Under the pieces are notes generated by a model. That model made no database searches. It worked only from the letters and a program-made list of their open reading frames with translations, and had not been told where the DNA came from. Source: Escherichia phage UPEC01. Taken from it: DNA of 64,000 nt. Position 1 is the stretch's first letter. Each line of letters starts with the position of its first letter. The DNA lies in the sequence record MW233709; one strand, given 5' to 3'. Below, in pieces: positions 9,745 through 59,114 of this stretch. The position numbers were made by a program, and so were the translations under genes.

Positions 9745-9802
9745 GTTTACATCCTCATCAAAAGGGTGTACTATTATCCCATCAACTACTGAGGAGAATA
9801 CA
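9745..9802 (+). promoter_or_regulatory. early promoter cassette with CAACTACTGA leader
   Basis: GTTTACA 9745-9751, GGGTGTACTATTAT, leader ATCCCATCAACTACTGAGGAG. Confidence 0.5.
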
Positions 9803-39516: not shown

Positions 39517-39850
39517 TATCGATTTATCTGATTTAGATAATTTCGAGAAAGATGCGGAGGGAGCTAAGGCTCCTTCTGTACCTTACTACGAAAAAAGTTT
39601 GGAGATTATCCGGCAATCCATGGGAACCGTACGACAGGAAATTCTGTTATCACTCCCTGATGGGTCCAGTCACATTGTGTACGTAACCGGAATTAAAATT
39701 GAACCATCTGGAAAAGTTTCAGTTGATTTCGGCACCCCTTCTGAAGACCGCAAAGCGGAGCTTGCAGTGCATGTAGAAAAGTGTGTTACAATGCAAATAC
39801 AAGATGAAATTGATAAGATTAAAATGAAAAAGAGGTGGTGGAAGTGGTAG
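39509..39850 (+). CDS. 40: gp40-like protein (by position between uvsX and 41)
   Basis: ATG 39509 overlapping uvsX stop; synteny only. Confidence 0.55.
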   Translation: MNDIDLSDLDNFEKDAEGAKAPSVPYYEKSLEIIRQSMGTVRQEILLSLPDGSSHIVYVTGIKIEPSGKVSVDFGTPSEDRKAELAVHVEKCVTMQIQDEIDKIKMKKRWWKW

Positions 39851-41274
39851 AAACTATTTTATCCCAGCTACTCTTTAACAAGGAATATTTTGTTAAAGTC
39901 TGGCCATATCTGAATAACACATATTTTGAAAAGGGTCCAGCAAAGACCCTTTTTAATACGATTAACGAACACGTAAAAGAATATCAAGCGGTACCAACTA
40001 AGACTGCACTTGATATCGCGCTCGACAGTTCTGACCTTTCTGAAGTCGAATATGAAGGCACAAAGAAACTCTTAGGAGTCCTGGCCGATACTCCAGAAGA
40101 CCAGGAATGGTTGGTTAAAGAAACCGAGAAGTATGTACAGAAGTCTGCGATGTTCAATGCCACATCCAGGATTATCGAAATCCAGAGCAATGCCGAACTT
40201 CCGAAAGATAAACGTGATAAACGAATCCCGGATATTGGTGCTATCCCTGACATCATGCGCGATGCATTGTCTATCTGTTTTGACTCTGCTCTGGGCCATG
40301 ACTGGTTAAACGATTACGAAGCTCGATTCCAGACTTATCTGAACAAATCGAAGAAGGTTCCGTTCCGTATTAACATCCTGAATAAAATCACGAAGGGCGG
40401 GGTTGAGTACGGTACAGAGAACGTTTTACTGGCCGGGACGAACGTCGGCAAATCCCTTGGACTTTGTTCGCTGGCGGCTGACTATCTTCAGACTGGTCAT
40501 AATGTGCTTTATATAAGCATGGAAATGGCTGAAGAAGTATGTGCCAAACGTATTGATGCCAACTTGCTGGATGTGTCTCTGGATGATATTGATGAAGGTC
40601 ATGTGTCATGGGCGGAATACAAAAGTAAGATGGAAAAATGGCGTGCAGCCGGGACCCTTGGGACTCTGAAGATAAAACAATATCCAACTGGCGGTGCTCA
40701 TGCGGATACCTTCCGTGCATTGCTGAATGAATACAAACTGAAGCAAGGGTTTGTGCCGGATGTGATTATTGTTGACTACCTGGCAATCTGTGCAAGCTCA
40801 AGACTGAAAACGTTTACCGAAAACAGTTACGGCCTGATTAAGATGGTTGCAGAAGAACTTCGTGGTCTGGCGGTCGAGAAAAATGTGGTCCTGTGGACTG
40901 CAGCGCAGACAACCAGGGGTGCGAACGTTGCAGCTGAGATTGATATGGCTGACATCGCTGAATCTTTTGGTATTGCTCACACGGCCGACTTTATGTTGGG
41001 TGTTGTTGAGACCGAAGAATTCGCTCAAATGGGACTACAGTTAATCAAACAGCTTAAGTCTCGTTACGGCGATAAGAACTACTATAATAAATTCAAGATG
41101 GGTGTTAAGAAAGGTAATCAGCGCTGGTACGAGGTTGATGATGATTCAGCTCCTAAACAAGGCCCTACGGTTAAAGAAGCCACTGGTGAGATGAATCGCC
41201 AGGCTGAAATGAATAGACAAACCAGGGTCAACAGGAGCGACCTGGACGACCTTGCTGCTCAAATGAAATTCTAA
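39844..41274 (+). CDS. 41: replicative DNA helicase gp41 (DnaB-like; GTG start)
   Basis: GTG 39844 gives MVETILSQLLF matching recalled T4 gp41 N-terminus; Walker A GTNVGKS. Confidence 0.94.
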   Translation: MVETILSQLLFNKEYFVKVWPYLNNTYFEKGPAKTLFNTINEHVKEYQAVPTKTALDIALDSSDLSEVEYEGTKKLLGVLADTPEDQEWLVKETEKYVQKSAMFNATSRIIEIQSNAELPKDKRDKRIPDIGAIPDIMRDALSICFDSALGHDWLNDYEARFQTYLNKSKKVPFRINILNKITKGGVEYGTENVLLAGTNVGKSLGLCSLAADYLQTGHNVLYISMEMAEEVCAKRIDANLLDVSLDDIDEGHVSWAEYKSKMEKWRAAGTLGTLKIKQYPTGGAHADTFRALLNEYKLKQGFVPDVIIVDYLAICASSRLKTFTENSYGLIKMVAEELRGLAVEKNVVLWTAAQTTRGANVAAEIDMADIAESFGIAHTADFMLGVVETEEFAQMGLQLIKQLKSRYGDKNYYNKFKMGVKKGNQRWYEVDDDSAPKQGPTVKEATGEMNRQAEMNRQTRVNRSDLDDLAAQMKF

Positions 41275-41296
41275 AGACCTTCGGGTCTTTTTCATT
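41274..41296 (+). terminator. rho-independent terminator
   Basis: AAGACC-TTCG-GGTCTT then T-run. Confidence 0.6.
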
Positions 41297-41301
41297 TAGA
41301 G

Positions 41302-41362
41302 GTTTACAACACCATAAAAAGGGTGTACTATTATCCCATCAACTACTGATGAGGATAATAAA
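41302..41362 (+). promoter_or_regulatory. early promoter cassette with CAACTACTGATGAGGA leader
   Basis: GTTTACAAC, GGGTGTACTATTAT, ATCCCATCAACTACTGATGAGGATAATAAA. Confidence 0.5.
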
Positions 41363-42060: not shown

Positions 42061-42378
42061 ATGAAAACCATTGATTGCAAGGCAGAATACAAAGTTTATT
42101 ATCATGGGTCAAGTTCTAATGCTGGAATCCAAAATATGCTTTGTCCTCCTGATGCAACTGGTGTTCTGTCAGAAGTTGGGCGTAAGAAAAATTTAGGGCG
42201 TGTGTTTTTTACTGAAGATATTGGTTTGGCGCGTATCTATGCAGGAAGAGCAGCTCGCTCATATGGAGGAGAACCCCGTCTTTATCGTGTGATTGCACCT
42301 GTTGACGTGGTTTGTTTAAATGATACTAAAGGCGCAACAGTTTATCACGCTGACTGGGCCTTCTGTGAGGAAATCTAA
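42061..42378 (+). CDS. hypothetical protein with PARP-like H-G-S motif (possible minimal ADP-ribosyltransferase fold)
   Basis: YYHGSSSNAGI resembles PARP HGSRTTNFAGI; RVFFTED resembles GIYFAD; only 105 aa. Confidence 0.5.
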   Translation: MKTIDCKAEYKVYYHGSSSNAGIQNMLCPPDATGVLSEVGRKKNLGRVFFTEDIGLARIYAGRAARSYGGEPRLYRVIAPVDVVCLNDTKGATVYHADWAFCEEI

Positions 42379-42582
42379 ATGTATAAATTAGAGAACGTAG
42401 TATTTATTGGTTGGTTTGAAAATGGTAATATGTTTACCAAAGAAACCGCGCTGGATGTCAGTGACAAAAATATGATTGAATGGGTTACAGTGCAGTATGC
42501 GGAAGTGAATAATGCGCTGGTTAAAGCCTTTGTTAATGACAATAAAGTTTTTGAATATGATGCCCGCATTGAGGAAATCTAA
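42379..42582 (+). CDS. hypothetical protein (paralogue of 42583 gene)
   Basis: Shares NALVKAFVNDNKV with next ORF; repeated junction GAGGAAATCTAAATG. Confidence 0.5.
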   Translation: MYKLENVVFIGWFENGNMFTKETALDVSDKNMIEWVTVQYAEVNNALVKAFVNDNKVFEYDARIEEI

Positions 42583-42924
42583 ATGACTTTTAATCCAGAA
42601 GACCGCGTAAAAGTAACAATCAAAGTGAGTGCCGTTGGCGTTCCATCTTTTGAGCGCTCAAGTATGTTCCATCCCGCAGGTATTCACTGGTATGTTCAGA
42701 AGACTGCTGATAACTATAATGCGCTGGTTGAAGCTTTTGTTGATGACAAGCTAATTCATAAAGTAGACATGCGTAAGGGTACTGCATTGCGTAATCTGAT
42801 TTTGACCGTTGAAGCGCAACTGGTAAATGAAGAAATCTGCCTTACTGATATTGAAGCAGCTCTTCATATTGCACGTGCTGAATATTACAAATTGACTGGT
42901 TTTTCAGTTGAAGGTGAAAAATAA
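42583..42924 (+). CDS. hypothetical protein (paralogue of 42379 gene)
   Basis: YNALVEAFVDDKLIHKV; repeated junction. Confidence 0.5.
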   Translation: MTFNPEDRVKVTIKVSAVGVPSFERSSMFHPAGIHWYVQKTADNYNALVEAFVDDKLIHKVDMRKGTALRNLILTVEAQLVNEEICLTDIEAALHIARAEYYKLTGFSVEGEK

Positions 42925-42982
42925 GTGTACATCAAAGGGGTAATGCAGTATATTATCCCTATCAACTACTGAGGAGATTGAA
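42925..42982 (+). promoter_or_regulatory. early promoter cassette
   Basis: GTGTACAT, TATATTAT, CCCTATCAACTACTGAGGAG. Confidence 0.5.
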
Positions 42983-43276
42983 ATGAAAAAGTTATTAATC
43001 GCAGCAATTCTTACCGTAGCATCATGTGGTACAGCCCCAGTTACTGCTGGGCTTGATAAAGACCTTTGTGAGTGGTCCATGACTGCGGACCAGACTGATG
43101 TTGAACACCAGATTTATGCTGACATCATGAACATTACTAAACGTGACCACCCAGATATGGTTAAAGAAGTATCTGACCAACTGGCTTCTGGTGACGTTAT
43201 GCAGTATAACTATGTTCTGTATTGCGATGCTTCATTTGACAACAGCAAGATTGTTCAATGGGTTACAGGTGAATAA
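42983..43276 (+). CDS. hypothetical lipoprotein
   Basis: Lipobox VASCG. Confidence 0.55.
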   Translation: MKKLLIAAILTVASCGTAPVTAGLDKDLCEWSMTADQTDVEHQIYADIMNITKRDHPDMVKEVSDQLASGDVMQYNYVLYCDASFDNSKIVQWVTGE

Positions 43277-43277
43277 A

Positions 43278-43718
43278 ATGATTAACAGAAATTTAGTTAT
43301 CAAAAAACTTCGTTGTAAAAATCAAAATGCACAAGCATACAGGATGTTTTGGAGCGACGAACCCATTCAATACCTGGGTTATTTTCTTGTTGATAGTGAT
43401 AATAGAATTACGTTTGCTCATAAACTTCTTAACAAAGAATTAAACCATTGGCAAGAACTTATTGCGGTCAAGTCTAAATTATTTTCGCGCAATACAATGC
43501 ACCAATTGGTTTATTTTTTCGCTGACGGTATTCCTGACAAGGTTGAGTTTGATGGGTTTGAATTTAAAGACATCACCCCTGATAATGAATTGAATGACAG
43601 TATTGTTAATATGGGTATCCCGGGTAAGTACATCAAAAACAGTCTTTTGAAACTTCTGGAAACCCCTGTATATTCAGTTGACGACCAGATTTTTAATGCC
43701 TTCATGAAGCGAGATTAG
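43278..43718 (+). CDS. hypothetical protein
   Basis: ATG 43278 after upstream stop; C-terminus SVDDQIFNAFMKRD. Confidence 0.5.
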   Translation: MINRNLVIKKLRCKNQNAQAYRMFWSDEPIQYLGYFLVDSDNRITFAHKLLNKELNHWQELIAVKSKLFSRNTMHQLVYFFADGIPDKVEFDGFEFKDITPDNELNDSIVNMGIPGKYIKNSLLKLLETPVYSVDDQIFNAFMKRD

Positions 43719-43722
43719 TATG
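43677..43722. repeat. direct repeat copy A (about 37-46 bp) at 3' end of CDS 43278-43718
   Basis: GTTGACGACCAGATTTTTAATGCCTTCATGAAGCGAG identical to 44033-44069. Confidence 0.8.
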
Positions 43723-44073
43723 AGTTATTATAATTTTCTGAATTTTGAACTGGCGAGCAATAATGATGGTAATGCTCATTATGAATTTCGTGAGCCACGG
43801 TTTAATCAAGCGATTGGTTATATTATCGTCAAAGATGATGTTATCATAAAGGCTCGCTCATTTATGGTAATGAATGGACCTTATGAAGATACTCGCGGCT
43901 ATCCATTTGATAAAAAGAATGTGCGCGATTGTGCAGCATGGATAACCGGAAACCCCGAAATTGGGGTCATGATATCTACTGAAGCGAATGACATTCTGGA
44001 AGGGGCTTGGGTCAAAGCTCAAGAACAGTCTGTTGACGACCAGATTTTTAATGCCTTCATGAAGCGAGGTTAA
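43720..44073 (+). CDS. hypothetical protein flanked by direct repeats
   Basis: C-terminus SVDDQIFNAFMKRG duplicates that of upstream gene. Confidence 0.5.
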   Translation: MSYYNFLNFELASNNDGNAHYEFREPRFNQAIGYIIVKDDVIIKARSFMVMNGPYEDTRGYPFDKKNVRDCAAWITGNPEIGVMISTEANDILEGAWVKAQEQSVDDQIFNAFMKRG

Positions 44074-44078
44074 TATGT
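44033..44078. repeat. direct repeat copy B
   Basis: Identical 37-mer; flanks differ. Confidence 0.8.
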
Positions 44079-44296
44079 TTGTTTTGACCCAATTCTCTAA
44101 AGCAATATATAGTTACTCTTGCCAGTGGGAAGTCTTTATTGATACGCCGTCTCCCAAGTATGGAGTTTTTGGACGAGTAACTACTCAAGCTTATGTTGCG
44201 CGACCGACTAAACGTCAGATTCGTAAACTTAAAAAGGCACATCGTCAACTGATTAAAAGAAGGGAACAATATGAGTGCAATGTGTACGGGCTCTAA
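44075..44296 (+). CDS. hypothetical basic protein
   Basis: Intact ORF. Confidence 0.45.
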   Translation: MFVLTQFSKAIYSYSCQWEVFIDTPSPKYGVFGRVTTQAYVARPTKRQIRKLKKAHRQLIKRREQYECNVYGL

Positions 44297-44462
44297 GATT
44301 TCCGTCTTCCAGATTTTTGAAGAATATGAAATCGTGTCGCAAGACCAAGAAGCAATCCATGCTATCGCTGATGATGGGGTTACCTGGATTATTCCGTTGT
44401 ATCATGAAGACACTTATGAAGTGACTGATGCAAATGGTGATAAAGCTATCTTCGTTGTATAA
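44271..44462 (+). CDS. hypothetical protein
   Basis: Intact ORF. Confidence 0.45.
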   Translation: MSAMCTGSKISVFQIFEEYEIVSQDQEAIHAIADDGVTWIIPLYHEDTYEVTDANGDKAIFVV

Positions 44463-44682: not shown

Positions 44683-45711
44683 ATGTCATATATTGATAGA
44701 GAATTTGCAGTCAGAGCTTTATCGTATCAACCACGTTATAGAGAAGTCACCGGGAGCACATTTAAAGCAAACTGTCGTTGCAAGGTTTGTGGGGACTCCC
44801 AGAAAGATTCACACAAGGCTCGATTCTGGGCGTATACTAATCCGGCCGATGGCGCGGTTTACGTGAAATGTTTTAACTGTGACTACTCCACGCATATAAG
44901 CAAATACATAAAAGAGTTTGAGCCGGATTTACACCGGGAATATATGGTTGAGAAGTATAAGGAGAATGCCTTTGGGCGACAACGCAATGAAGTCATTGAA
45001 ACTCCGAAAGAACCAGAAAAAACTCCGGTTATCGAACAGCTTGCTTTTTGTGAAAGACTCGATACTTTACCAGAAGCACATCCGATAATTAAGTATGTAA
45101 AAAGTCGATGTATTCCAAGCAATGTTTGGAATCGACTATGGTTTACAAACCAATGGCCCACATTAGTTAACTCCGTTAATCCTGGGACGTATAAGAATGA
45201 AACGAATGAACCACGCTTGGTTATTCCTATCTTCAACGGCAAAAAAGAAATCGAATCTTTCCAAGGACGAGCTCTTCGCAAAGATGCACCACAAAAATAT
45301 ATCACAATCAAAGCTCACCCAGAAGCTTCCAAAGTCTATGGCGTAGACAAGATTGATGAGCGTAAACGCGTATGGGTAATGGAAGGTCCGATTGATAGTT
45401 TGTTTATCCCTAACAGCATTGCGATAACTGGTGGAACATTGTCATTGGAAGCCGTTCCTTATCCAGAAACCAGAGTATGGGTAATGGACAACGAACCAAG
45501 ACATCCGGATACGATTAAACGTATGAAGAAGCTCGTTGAAGCTGGCGAAGCTGTTATGTTCTGGGACAATGCACCATGGCATACGAAAGACATAAATGAG
45601 ATGGTTAAATCAGAAGGAGCAACCCCTGAACAAATCGAATCATATATGGCTGATAACGTTGCCCAAGGATTGATGGCGAGAATGCGACTTTCGAAGTACG
45701 CAAAAGTTTAG
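44683..45711 (+). CDS. 61: DNA primase gp61
   Basis: Zinc ribbon CRCKVCGDS..CFNCDY; long matches to recalled T4 gp61. Confidence 0.95.
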   Translation: MSYIDREFAVRALSYQPRYREVTGSTFKANCRCKVCGDSQKDSHKARFWAYTNPADGAVYVKCFNCDYSTHISKYIKEFEPDLHREYMVEKYKENAFGRQRNEVIETPKEPEKTPVIEQLAFCERLDTLPEAHPIIKYVKSRCIPSNVWNRLWFTNQWPTLVNSVNPGTYKNETNEPRLVIPIFNGKKEIESFQGRALRKDAPQKYITIKAHPEASKVYGVDKIDERKRVWVMEGPIDSLFIPNSIAITGGTLSLEAVPYPETRVWVMDNEPRHPDTIKRMKKLVEAGEAVMFWDNAPWHTKDINEMVKSEGATPEQIESYMADNVAQGLMARMRLSKYAKV

Positions 45712-59089: not shown

Positions 59090-59114
59090 AAAGGACCTTC
59101 GGGTCCTTTTTTAT
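59090..59114 (+). terminator. rho-independent terminator
   Basis: AAGGACC-TTCG-GGTCCTT then TTTTTT. Confidence 0.65.

Follow-up and report, generated by a model that had tools for sequence, protein, structure and literature searches.

Adjacent, probably AdfA-related genes of a T4-like coliphage share a conserved C-terminal coding end that may double as a recombination site

Escherichia phage UPEC01 (sequence record MW233709) belongs to the genus Gaprivervirus, a group of T4-like coliphages. In the 64,000-nucleotide stretch of its DNA analyzed here (the window), two adjacent genes, termed A and B, end in the same 37 nucleotides (nt). The repeat is probably not the scar of a recent insertion: A and B are best explained as neighbors that both belong to the family of AdfA (anti-DarT factor A), and the repeat as the coding sequence of a conserved C-terminal peptide that has become a recombination site only secondarily.

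RESULTS

Two adjacent genes end in the same 37 nucleotides

The sequence GTTGACGACCAGATTTTTAATGCCTTCATGAAGCGAG has exactly two exact copies in the window, spaced 355 nt apart, and this direct repeat closes both gene A and gene B. An exact repeat of this length in 64 kb is far beyond chance. When extended, the match covers 46 of 49 positions, running through the stop codon (TAG in A, TAA in B) and a single spacer base to the ATG that starts the following gene. The genes and the two copies of the shared end, hereafter the tail, are as follows.

43278..43718, plus strand: gene A, 146 amino acids (aa), an open reading frame (ORF) directly after sp, in the position of adfA in T4; PHROG 8539; no Pfam family
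43720..44073, plus strand: gene B, 117 aa, RB32ORF033c-type, its presence varying between related phages; PHROG 4122 (E = 3e-53)
43674..43722, plus strand: tail copy 1 (exact core 43677-43713), comprising the last 14 codons of A (C terminus SVDDQIFNAFMKRD), TAG, T, and the ATG of B
44029..44077, plus strand: tail copy 2 (exact core 44032-44068), comprising the last 14 codons of B (C terminus SVDDQIFNAFMKRG), TAA, T, and the ATG of the downstream gene

An earlier, sequence-only reading had reported that the end of A recurs exactly at the end of B amid unrelated sequence. Both copies were located, and the lack of relationship outside them holds at the level of simple sequence comparison, the sole BLASTP match between the two proteins being their 13 C-terminal residues.

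The tail occurs on three gene bodies in several genera

The tail encodes a C-terminal peptide with the consensus S(V/I)DDQIFNAFM(K/N/E/S)(R/K)(G/D), which is present on three gene bodies: AdfA (T4 gp61.2; 208 to 216 aa), the A family (143 to 148 aa), and the B family (116 to 125 aa), whose original annotation was RB32ORF033c, "similar to gp61.2." In all loci read (T4, RB51, slur03, T2, RB69-like phages, Dhakavirus, Gaprivervirus, and metagenome contigs), the genes that carry it occupy the slot behind the Spackle gene, sp. Every tail is followed by a stop codon, 1 nt, and an ATG, and the gene that begins there is variable, being B, 61.1, a tifA-like gene, or a 63-aa ORF. A and B of the window both show the AdfA-type C-terminal motif followed by the stop codon and the next ATG. 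Scans of viral and metagenome collections with DNA patterns detected the tail on no body other than AdfA, A, and B.

The gene orders at this slot are sp-AdfA-61.1 in T4; sp-AdfA-B-61.1 in RB51 and slur03; sp-B-61.1 in T2; sp-A-B-tifA-like in the window, VR20, SP18, VR7, and others; sp-A-tifA-like in VR26, MX01, and JS98; and sp-A-B-63-aa ORF in EAWsc9 and MN01. By tblastn, A is present in 85 phage records, all Dhakavirus or Gaprivervirus; B in 332 (33 at 80% identity or more and 299 of the Tequatrovirus type); and the N-terminal half of AdfA in 487. Beyond close relatives of A and B, word-index searches recovered a single further protein, an A homolog with 34% identity, and a query with the 40-aa tail peptide returned short fragments only.

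The tail is present also in genomes that have a single copy. The interpretation of the repeat as an insertion footprint, which the sequence-only reading had offered, is not supported by this distribution: the repeat is an intrinsic C-terminal motif that occurs in single-copy genomes and on AdfA, A, and B bodies in several genera.

The homolog with 34% identity to A in its body comes from a divergent lineage, represented by metagenomic contig L025 (from SRR8048120; positions 560-1349), where it stands between sp and a B gene. It keeps 27 identical C-terminal residues (KYIKNSLLKILETPVYSVDDQIFNAFM), and the two tails of the contig differ at 10 of 37 nt. On a T2-like metagenomic contig (L042), B is frameshifted, which leaves a 33-aa C-terminal ORF. 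Similar 33-aa ORFs are annotated in several phages; considered as B remnants, they trace to a frameshifted T2-like B gene.

The tail is conserved as a peptide

Among 26 distinct tails, the nine-residue core DDQIFNAFM has nine synonymous and no nonsynonymous variant states; only 11 of the 81 possible single-base changes of the core are synonymous (P ~ 1.6e-8 under neutrality). Synonymous variation affects eight of the nine core codons. The excess of synonymous over nonsynonymous variants therefore shows that selection on the tail acts at the level of the peptide. Both genes as a whole are under purifying selection, with ratios of nonsynonymous to synonymous substitution rates (dN/dS) of 0.09 to 0.24 for A and 0.13 to 0.33 for B.

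In structure models of both A and B, the tail is predicted as a separate, low-confidence helix behind a disordered linker. The I-F...F-M spacing would give this helix one hydrophobic face, and it could serve as a docking, binding, or oligomerization element.

The last two codons of the tail, CGA GGT, place a GAGG Shine-Dalgarno sequence 5 nt ahead of the following ATG, so that the end of the tail would act as the ribosome-binding site of the next gene, and translation may be coupled across the junction. The copy preceding B nearly always has GAT (giving GAGA) or AAAGGT instead of the form that yields GAGG.

Relation of A and B to AdfA

B matches phrog_4122 over its full length (residues 1 to 117; E = 3.1e-53), and A matches phrog_8539 over its full length (residues 1 to 146; E = 3.5e-91). 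The window B protein has 49% identity to RB51 ORF033c and, with the tail excluded, still matches the B proteins of the T2/RB51 type at E = 2e-20. The T2-type B in turn scores 32.4 bits against the Pfam AdfA family (PF23813; E = 7.6e-8), for which membership was taken to require that the protein as a whole reach the curated gathering cutoff of 27 bits; its residues 21 to 118 align to profile positions 112 to 211. The B family and AdfA (PHROG 3781) also match each other in both directions among PHROG profiles (E ~ 1e-6), and the AdfA region aligned with the B family (112 to 211) includes the helix that carries the residue determining DarT1 specificity. By these comparisons, B is a paralog of AdfA that has a single domain, corresponding to its C-terminal half, and homology that extends through the tail argues that the shared tail was inherited rather than captured.

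For A, hhalign comparisons without the tail give P = 0.0015 to 0.02 and center on a shared hG(Y/F)hhV(K)D(N)xI motif. A colinear multiple alignment of A with the family is plausible, GYEL pairing with GFEF/GFDF. The models of A and B show the same order of elements (four or five strands, helix, strand, helices), with the hG(Y/F)hhV(K)D(N) motif on strand 3. A Foldseek search with the B model matched the BFVD model of the VR25 A protein (E = 4e-5; template modeling score, 0.57), and the B model also matches a 212-aa protein (E = 1.5e-3).

A number of results pull against placing the two genes in this family. Window B itself scores only 21.4 bits against Pfam AdfA, below the cutoff; its only Pfam match is between its last 16 residues (102 to 117) and the last 16 AdfA positions (196 to 211), that is, the tail, so that its membership would follow by transitivity through the T2-type B. 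When a Gaprivervirus B profile was run with HMMER exhaustively against 1.84 billion representatives, it gave seven matches, of which two are repetitive, unrelated proteins and none is AdfA. Comparisons between families with the tail removed are weak (BLASTP, E = 0.009 to 0.1; hhalign, P = 0.002 to 0.02) and not decisive alone. Window A has no Pfam AdfA match even at E values up to 10; its PHROG cross-matches with AdfA reach only E = 0.004 to 0.007, tail included; and Foldseek with the A model returned its own family only, neither B nor AdfA. The models are moderate in quality, with predicted local distance difference test (pLDDT) scores of 67 for A and 75 for B, only one good model of five for B, and a pLDDT of about 50 or less for the tail helix.

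Neither protein has the full-length AdfA architecture of about 210 aa, A having 146 residues and B, which spans only the C-terminal half of the profile, 117. The "INH" histidine of AdfA (the position called 164, in RB69 numbering) aligns with Cys71 in window B and with Gln in A. On sequence grounds, A and B would both fall in or adjoin the AdfA family, the evidence being weaker for A, and both may act as inhibitors of toxins or defense systems.

Identity between the two copies

Across 18 two-copy genomes, the copies differ at 0 to 10 of 37 positions. There are no differences in the window, VR20, RZ, and the Tequatrovirus slur03, and 2 to 10 in the others. Recent gene conversion between the tails, with the repeat being actively homogenized, is a possible but doubtful source of the exact identity. 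The A tails of the window, VR20, RZ, TH41, and UPEC07 do carry the B-typical codons CAG and TTC where other Gaprivervirus A tails have CAA and TTT, but both of these pairs are also polymorphic in the tails of B-less Dhakaviruses. The window-type B tail has GTT (Val), as in A tails, where other B tails have ATT, and the two copies share their Arg codon (CGA versus AGA) and their lysine or asparagine state per genus; informative biallelic sites nevertheless number only about six, and differences between copies persist in many genomes. Constraint and codon bias alone can give identity. Since only about six sites in the tail vary, identical copies are not very improbable; an estimate from allele frequencies puts them at roughly 5 to 10% per lineage.

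Loss, gain, and exchange of B

In VR26 and most Dhakaviruses, the segment missing is precisely B, from tail to tail, and T4 lacks it in the same way when compared with RB51 and slur03; one tail remains and leads into the next gene. The presence or absence of the 354-bp unit in relatives, which the sequence-only reading had pointed to, thus bears it out as a variable module: VR26, MX01, and JS98 have A, whose single tail runs straight into the next gene.

Exchange of the module can be followed in UGJNEcP3. Its flanks are those of a Dhakavirus, with 92 to 100% identity to MX01 and JS98, and the sequence becomes Gaprivervirus-like from just upstream of tail 1 through B, comprising the 3' end of A plus B. 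The right crossover falls inside tail 2, between GTC and TTT ATG AAT. Synonymous divergence (dS) from the window is discordant between A and B in other genomes (0.70 and 0.19 in VR7, 0.16 and 0.47 in EAWsc9, and 0.06 and 0.22 in SP18). The positions at which divergence switches (VR7, TH41, and EAWsc9) concentrate in two places, one being tail 1 with the conserved 3' end of A and the other tail 2 with the bases just ahead of it.

The tails form a direct repeat around B and are the longest perfect identity between diverged phages at the locus, and the tail therefore appears to act, secondarily, as a site of homologous recombination for the loss of B and for allele exchange between phages. Recombination at short homologies is known to cause amplifications and deletions in the same island of T4 (PMC9391042). 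Most breakpoints, it must be said against this role, adjoin the identical core and do not lie inside it.

Whether the identical copies are instead the trace of a B-less ancestor having recently gained a B cassette through a short shared 3' sequence turns on the direction of change, and such an insertion is unlikely. The exact absence of B between tails (85 records have A, and about 33 have a B with at least 80% identity) would be expected after an insertion, and UGJNEcP3 is a case of B entering a Dhakavirus backbone; the tails, however, are intrinsic to the genes, A being tailed in B-less genomes and B being tailed in T2, where it has no upstream gene of this kind. The tail is moreover the AdfA-family C terminus, with its peptide conserved across genera. 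The copies agree at 37 of 37 positions in the window, VR20, and RZ, but exact identity is the extreme of the distribution given above and is roughly expected at the rate estimated there. Compared with VR20 or RZ, the flanks in the window show no mosaic boundary at the tails. Of the claim that a cassette entered through the shared 3' sequence, what stands is the module that comes and goes and the crossover in tail 2 of UGJNEcP3; what falls is the notion that the repeat was created by an insertion or is diagnostic of one.

A tail-bearing gene precedes B in four lineages (Tequatrovirus, Gaprivervirus, some Dhakaviruses, and the divergent metagenomic L025), and the divergence of B is typical of vertical descent: between genera, B has 49% identity, close to the values of 57% for dmd, 61% for gp61, and 66% for sp. 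In T2 (L008, 1732-1746) and T2-like contigs (L042), a 13-nt remnant of an AdfA tail, AGAGGTTAGTATG, persists between sp and B, so AdfA appears to have been deleted in T2. VR26, which is B-less, has the GAT codon that elsewhere marks copy 1 of genomes with B, which suggests loss of B. The B-less and AdfA-less states look like deletions. Recent cassette entry would fit less well, short of proof, than an old tandem pair, probably born of a partial duplication of an adfA-like gene, that has since undergone repeated losses and exchanges of alleles. Counting against this order of events, the polarity of loss versus gain rests on parsimony and small sequence signatures.

A regulatory or recombination element within the coding ends

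It is very improbable that the repeat is conserved as a DNA or RNA cassette that merely overlaps the coding ends, whether as a structured RNA, as the site of a site-specific enzyme, or as an element like the PeSLs, the early-promoter and stem-loop cassettes that are known mediators of shuffling in the hyperplastic regions of T4-like phages (PMC2839356, PMC4122927). The last 12 nt do hold the GAGG Shine-Dalgarno sequence, the stop codon, and the next ATG, and a sigma-70-like match (TTGAAA-16-TATATT, 43647-43674) lies just 5' of copy 1. That match has no counterpart before copy 2, however, and the repeat is coding, not intergenic, with eight of nine core codons varying synonymously and none in amino acid. 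Neither copy folds better than shuffled sequence (z = +2.37 and +0.17), no stem-loop was found, and a terminator scan detected none overlapping either copy. The PeSL and RNA-element readings were rejected on these folding and promoter/terminator scans. A 10-bp palindrome in the window tails, CTTCATGAAG, was ruled out as a site because T4-type tails, and many of those in Gaprivervirus, do not have it. A reading of TGCCTTCA...TAGTAT as a MotA-like box was dropped, since it would need an insertion or deletion relative to the consensus.

A spurious duplication by the assembler, which the sequence-only reading had named as a possible undoing of the repeat, can be dismissed, since the two-copy arrangement, with an intact ORF of 116 to 122 aa between the tails, recurs in at least 18 independently sequenced genomes or contigs from different laboratories and platforms, and B is under purifying selection.

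The surrounding island

Over the locus stretch, the window has 96 to 98% identity to TH41, PSD2001, and VR20. The locus is flanked by the helicase gene 41 (39835-41274) on one side and the primase gene 61 (44683-45711) on the other. From 41 to 61, the order is two hypothetical genes, dmd, a Dmd-like paralog, sp, A, B, a DUF7279 gene, the 63-aa ORF, and a 61.1-like gene; the syntenic order in T4 is 41-dmd-61.4-sp-61.2-61.1-61. The immediate neighbors of A and B are as follows.

42983..43276, plus strand: sp (Spackle), the conserved left neighbor of the slot; Pfam T4_Spackle (E = 2.5e-43)
44075..44296, plus strand: TifA/gp61.4-like gene (DUF7279) 3' of B; Pfam DUF7279 (E = 3e-20), 39% identity to RB51 gp61.4 (E = 1e-13)

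A starts 1 nt past the sp stop codon and B comes next after A, so both occupy the adfA position downstream of sp in the 41-61 interval. The dmd/tifA/sp/adfA interval has been proposed to be an "anti-TA (toxin-antitoxin) island," in which Dmd counters RnlA, TifA counters ToxN, and AdfA (gp61.2) counters DarT (PMC9391042). AdfA binds DarT1, with specificity set by the residue called 164 (PMC11257639).

The TifA-like gene, a homolog of the T4 ToxN inhibitor gp61.4, lies downstream of B in the window, as opposed to beside dmd in T4, and it overlaps the 63-aa ORF (44271-44462) by 26 nt. It is missing in EAWsc9 and MN01, where the junction is the TAATATG of the tail.

An in-frame segment of the Spackle gene (43099-43131; DVEHQIYADIMN) resembles the tail (SVDDQIFNAFMK) at 26 of 33 nt, and the best score in 200 Markov-simulated 64-kb windows never exceeded 23. 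In other genera, the corresponding match is only 18 to 22 of 34; it is therefore read as a shared peptide-like motif, V(E/D)xQI(F/Y)xx(I/F)M(N/K), which thus occurs in three consecutive genes (sp, A, and B).

The dmd gene (42379-42582) lies between identical 16-mers, TGAGGAAATCTAAATG (42366-42381 and 42570-42585), with a third copy at 81% identity (42970-42985). Each 16-mer flanking dmd consists of the end of the upstream gene (...EEI), its stop codon, and the next ATG, the same architecture of shared 3' end, Shine-Dalgarno sequence, stop, and start as in the tail, within the same island; this hints that the architecture is general. Directly after dmd lies a Dmd-like paralog of 113 aa (42583-42924; Pfam Dmd, E = 0.0017), which is apparently absent from MX01, RZ, and SP18, judging by their annotation. 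A 34-nt repeat (42509-42542 and 42716-42749; 91% identity) is common to the two genes.

Elsewhere in the window, a family of exact repeats of 20 to 32 nt is spread over positions 9760, 23758, 41317-41348, 49757, and 53894. The copy at 41317 is just past gene 41, beside a terminator-like hairpin (41273-41290) and a promoter-like site (41303-41331), and these scattered repeats may be PeSL-type or early-promoter cassettes. Other long exact direct repeats are at 59107 and 59198 (91 nt), 53092 and 53132 (35 nt), and 3484 and 3812 (32 nt).

DISCUSSION

The favored explanation can be put as a sequence of steps. A and B would be neighboring AdfA-family members in the anti-toxin or anti-defense cluster of a T4-like Gaprivervirus, and the 37-nt repeat would encode the C-terminal peptide of the family, predicted to form a short amphipathic helix on a flexible linker. 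The coding end of the peptide would be fused to a stop-T-ATG junction, its final codons doubling as the Shine-Dalgarno sequence of the following gene. Near-identity of the tails would come mainly from peptide-level selection combined with AT-biased codon use; the copies could also be homogenized now and then, although the identity does not need it. Recombination between the two tails would delete B precisely, and crossovers in or beside the tails would reassort alleles of A, B, and the downstream gene among coinfecting phages.

A broader proposal, which we offer as speculation and consider rather unlikely, is that the tail is a dual-purpose adaptor: a shared docking or oligomerization helix for the inhibitor "heads" AdfA, A, and B, and at the same time a coding analogue of PeSLs. 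If so, the peptide would let different heads act through one shared partner or as hetero-oligomers, and T-even phages could stack, drop, and swap anti-toxin heads in frame with downstream translation intact, amounting to an anti-defense cassette system.

If the sequence relationships are read correctly, two uncharacterized genes of Gaprivervirus and Dhakavirus are placed in or beside the AdfA anti-DarT family and become candidate inhibitors of DarT-like or other toxins. The nine-residue core, invariant over three very different bodies, is a clear target for mutagenesis. The locus also provides a natural, sequence-resolved case of a conserved coding end serving as a crossover and deletion site. 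Recombination at the tail would account for the AdfA-only (T4), B-only (T2), and AdfA-plus-B (RB51-type) states, and the upstream AdfA-tail remnant explains how T2 can "lack adfA" while one of its genes is annotated 61.2. No new kind of mechanism is involved; this is fairly ordinary, if instructive, phage gene shuffling.

Among known genes, AdfA (T4/RB69 gp61.2; PF23813, PHROG 3781) resembles A and B in its locus after sp, its C-terminal tail, and its stop/ATG junction. With about 210 aa, AdfA appears to hold two such domains, whereas A and B have one, and it counters DarT, an activity not known for A or B. The RB32ORF033c-type gene (T2 "gp61.2," PHROG 4122) is the ortholog of window B. Like B, it sits directly after a tail-bearing gene and before the next ATG, and its presence varies, T4 being without it and T2 having only this gene of the two. 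Its upstream partner is a full-length AdfA and its downstream neighbor is 61.1, in contrast to gene A upstream and the tifA-like gene downstream of window B.

Nothing in the module marks it as self-mobile: it encodes no nuclease, transposase, or recombinase, its repeats are not a duplicated target, and it does not qualify as a homing endonuclease gene, a transposon, or an insertion sequence. Closer parallels come from two systems of homologous exchange. In the T4 dmd-tifA events (Srikant et al. 2022, PMC9391042), which affect the same island, short direct homologies flanking small anti-toxin genes likewise change copy number and cause loss; those events were selected in the laboratory and used microhomologies of 2 to 10 bp, whereas the present case is a natural repeat of 37 to 49 bp around one gene, known from comparative evidence. 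In PeSL shuffling (Arbiol et al. 2010, PMC2839356; Comeau et al. 2014, PMC4122927), short conserved boundary sequences are the points of exchange in hyperplastic regions, as here, and both PeSLs and the tail yield insertions, deletions, and replacements between related phages. The tail plays a PeSL-type role in that indels and replacements between close relatives are bounded by it and crossover takes place there. It departs from the definition of a PeSL, an intergenic cassette with a strong sigma-70-like early promoter and a stem-loop terminator, in being a coding C terminus with a Shine-Dalgarno sequence, stop, and start, which has no stem-loop and is conserved as a peptide.

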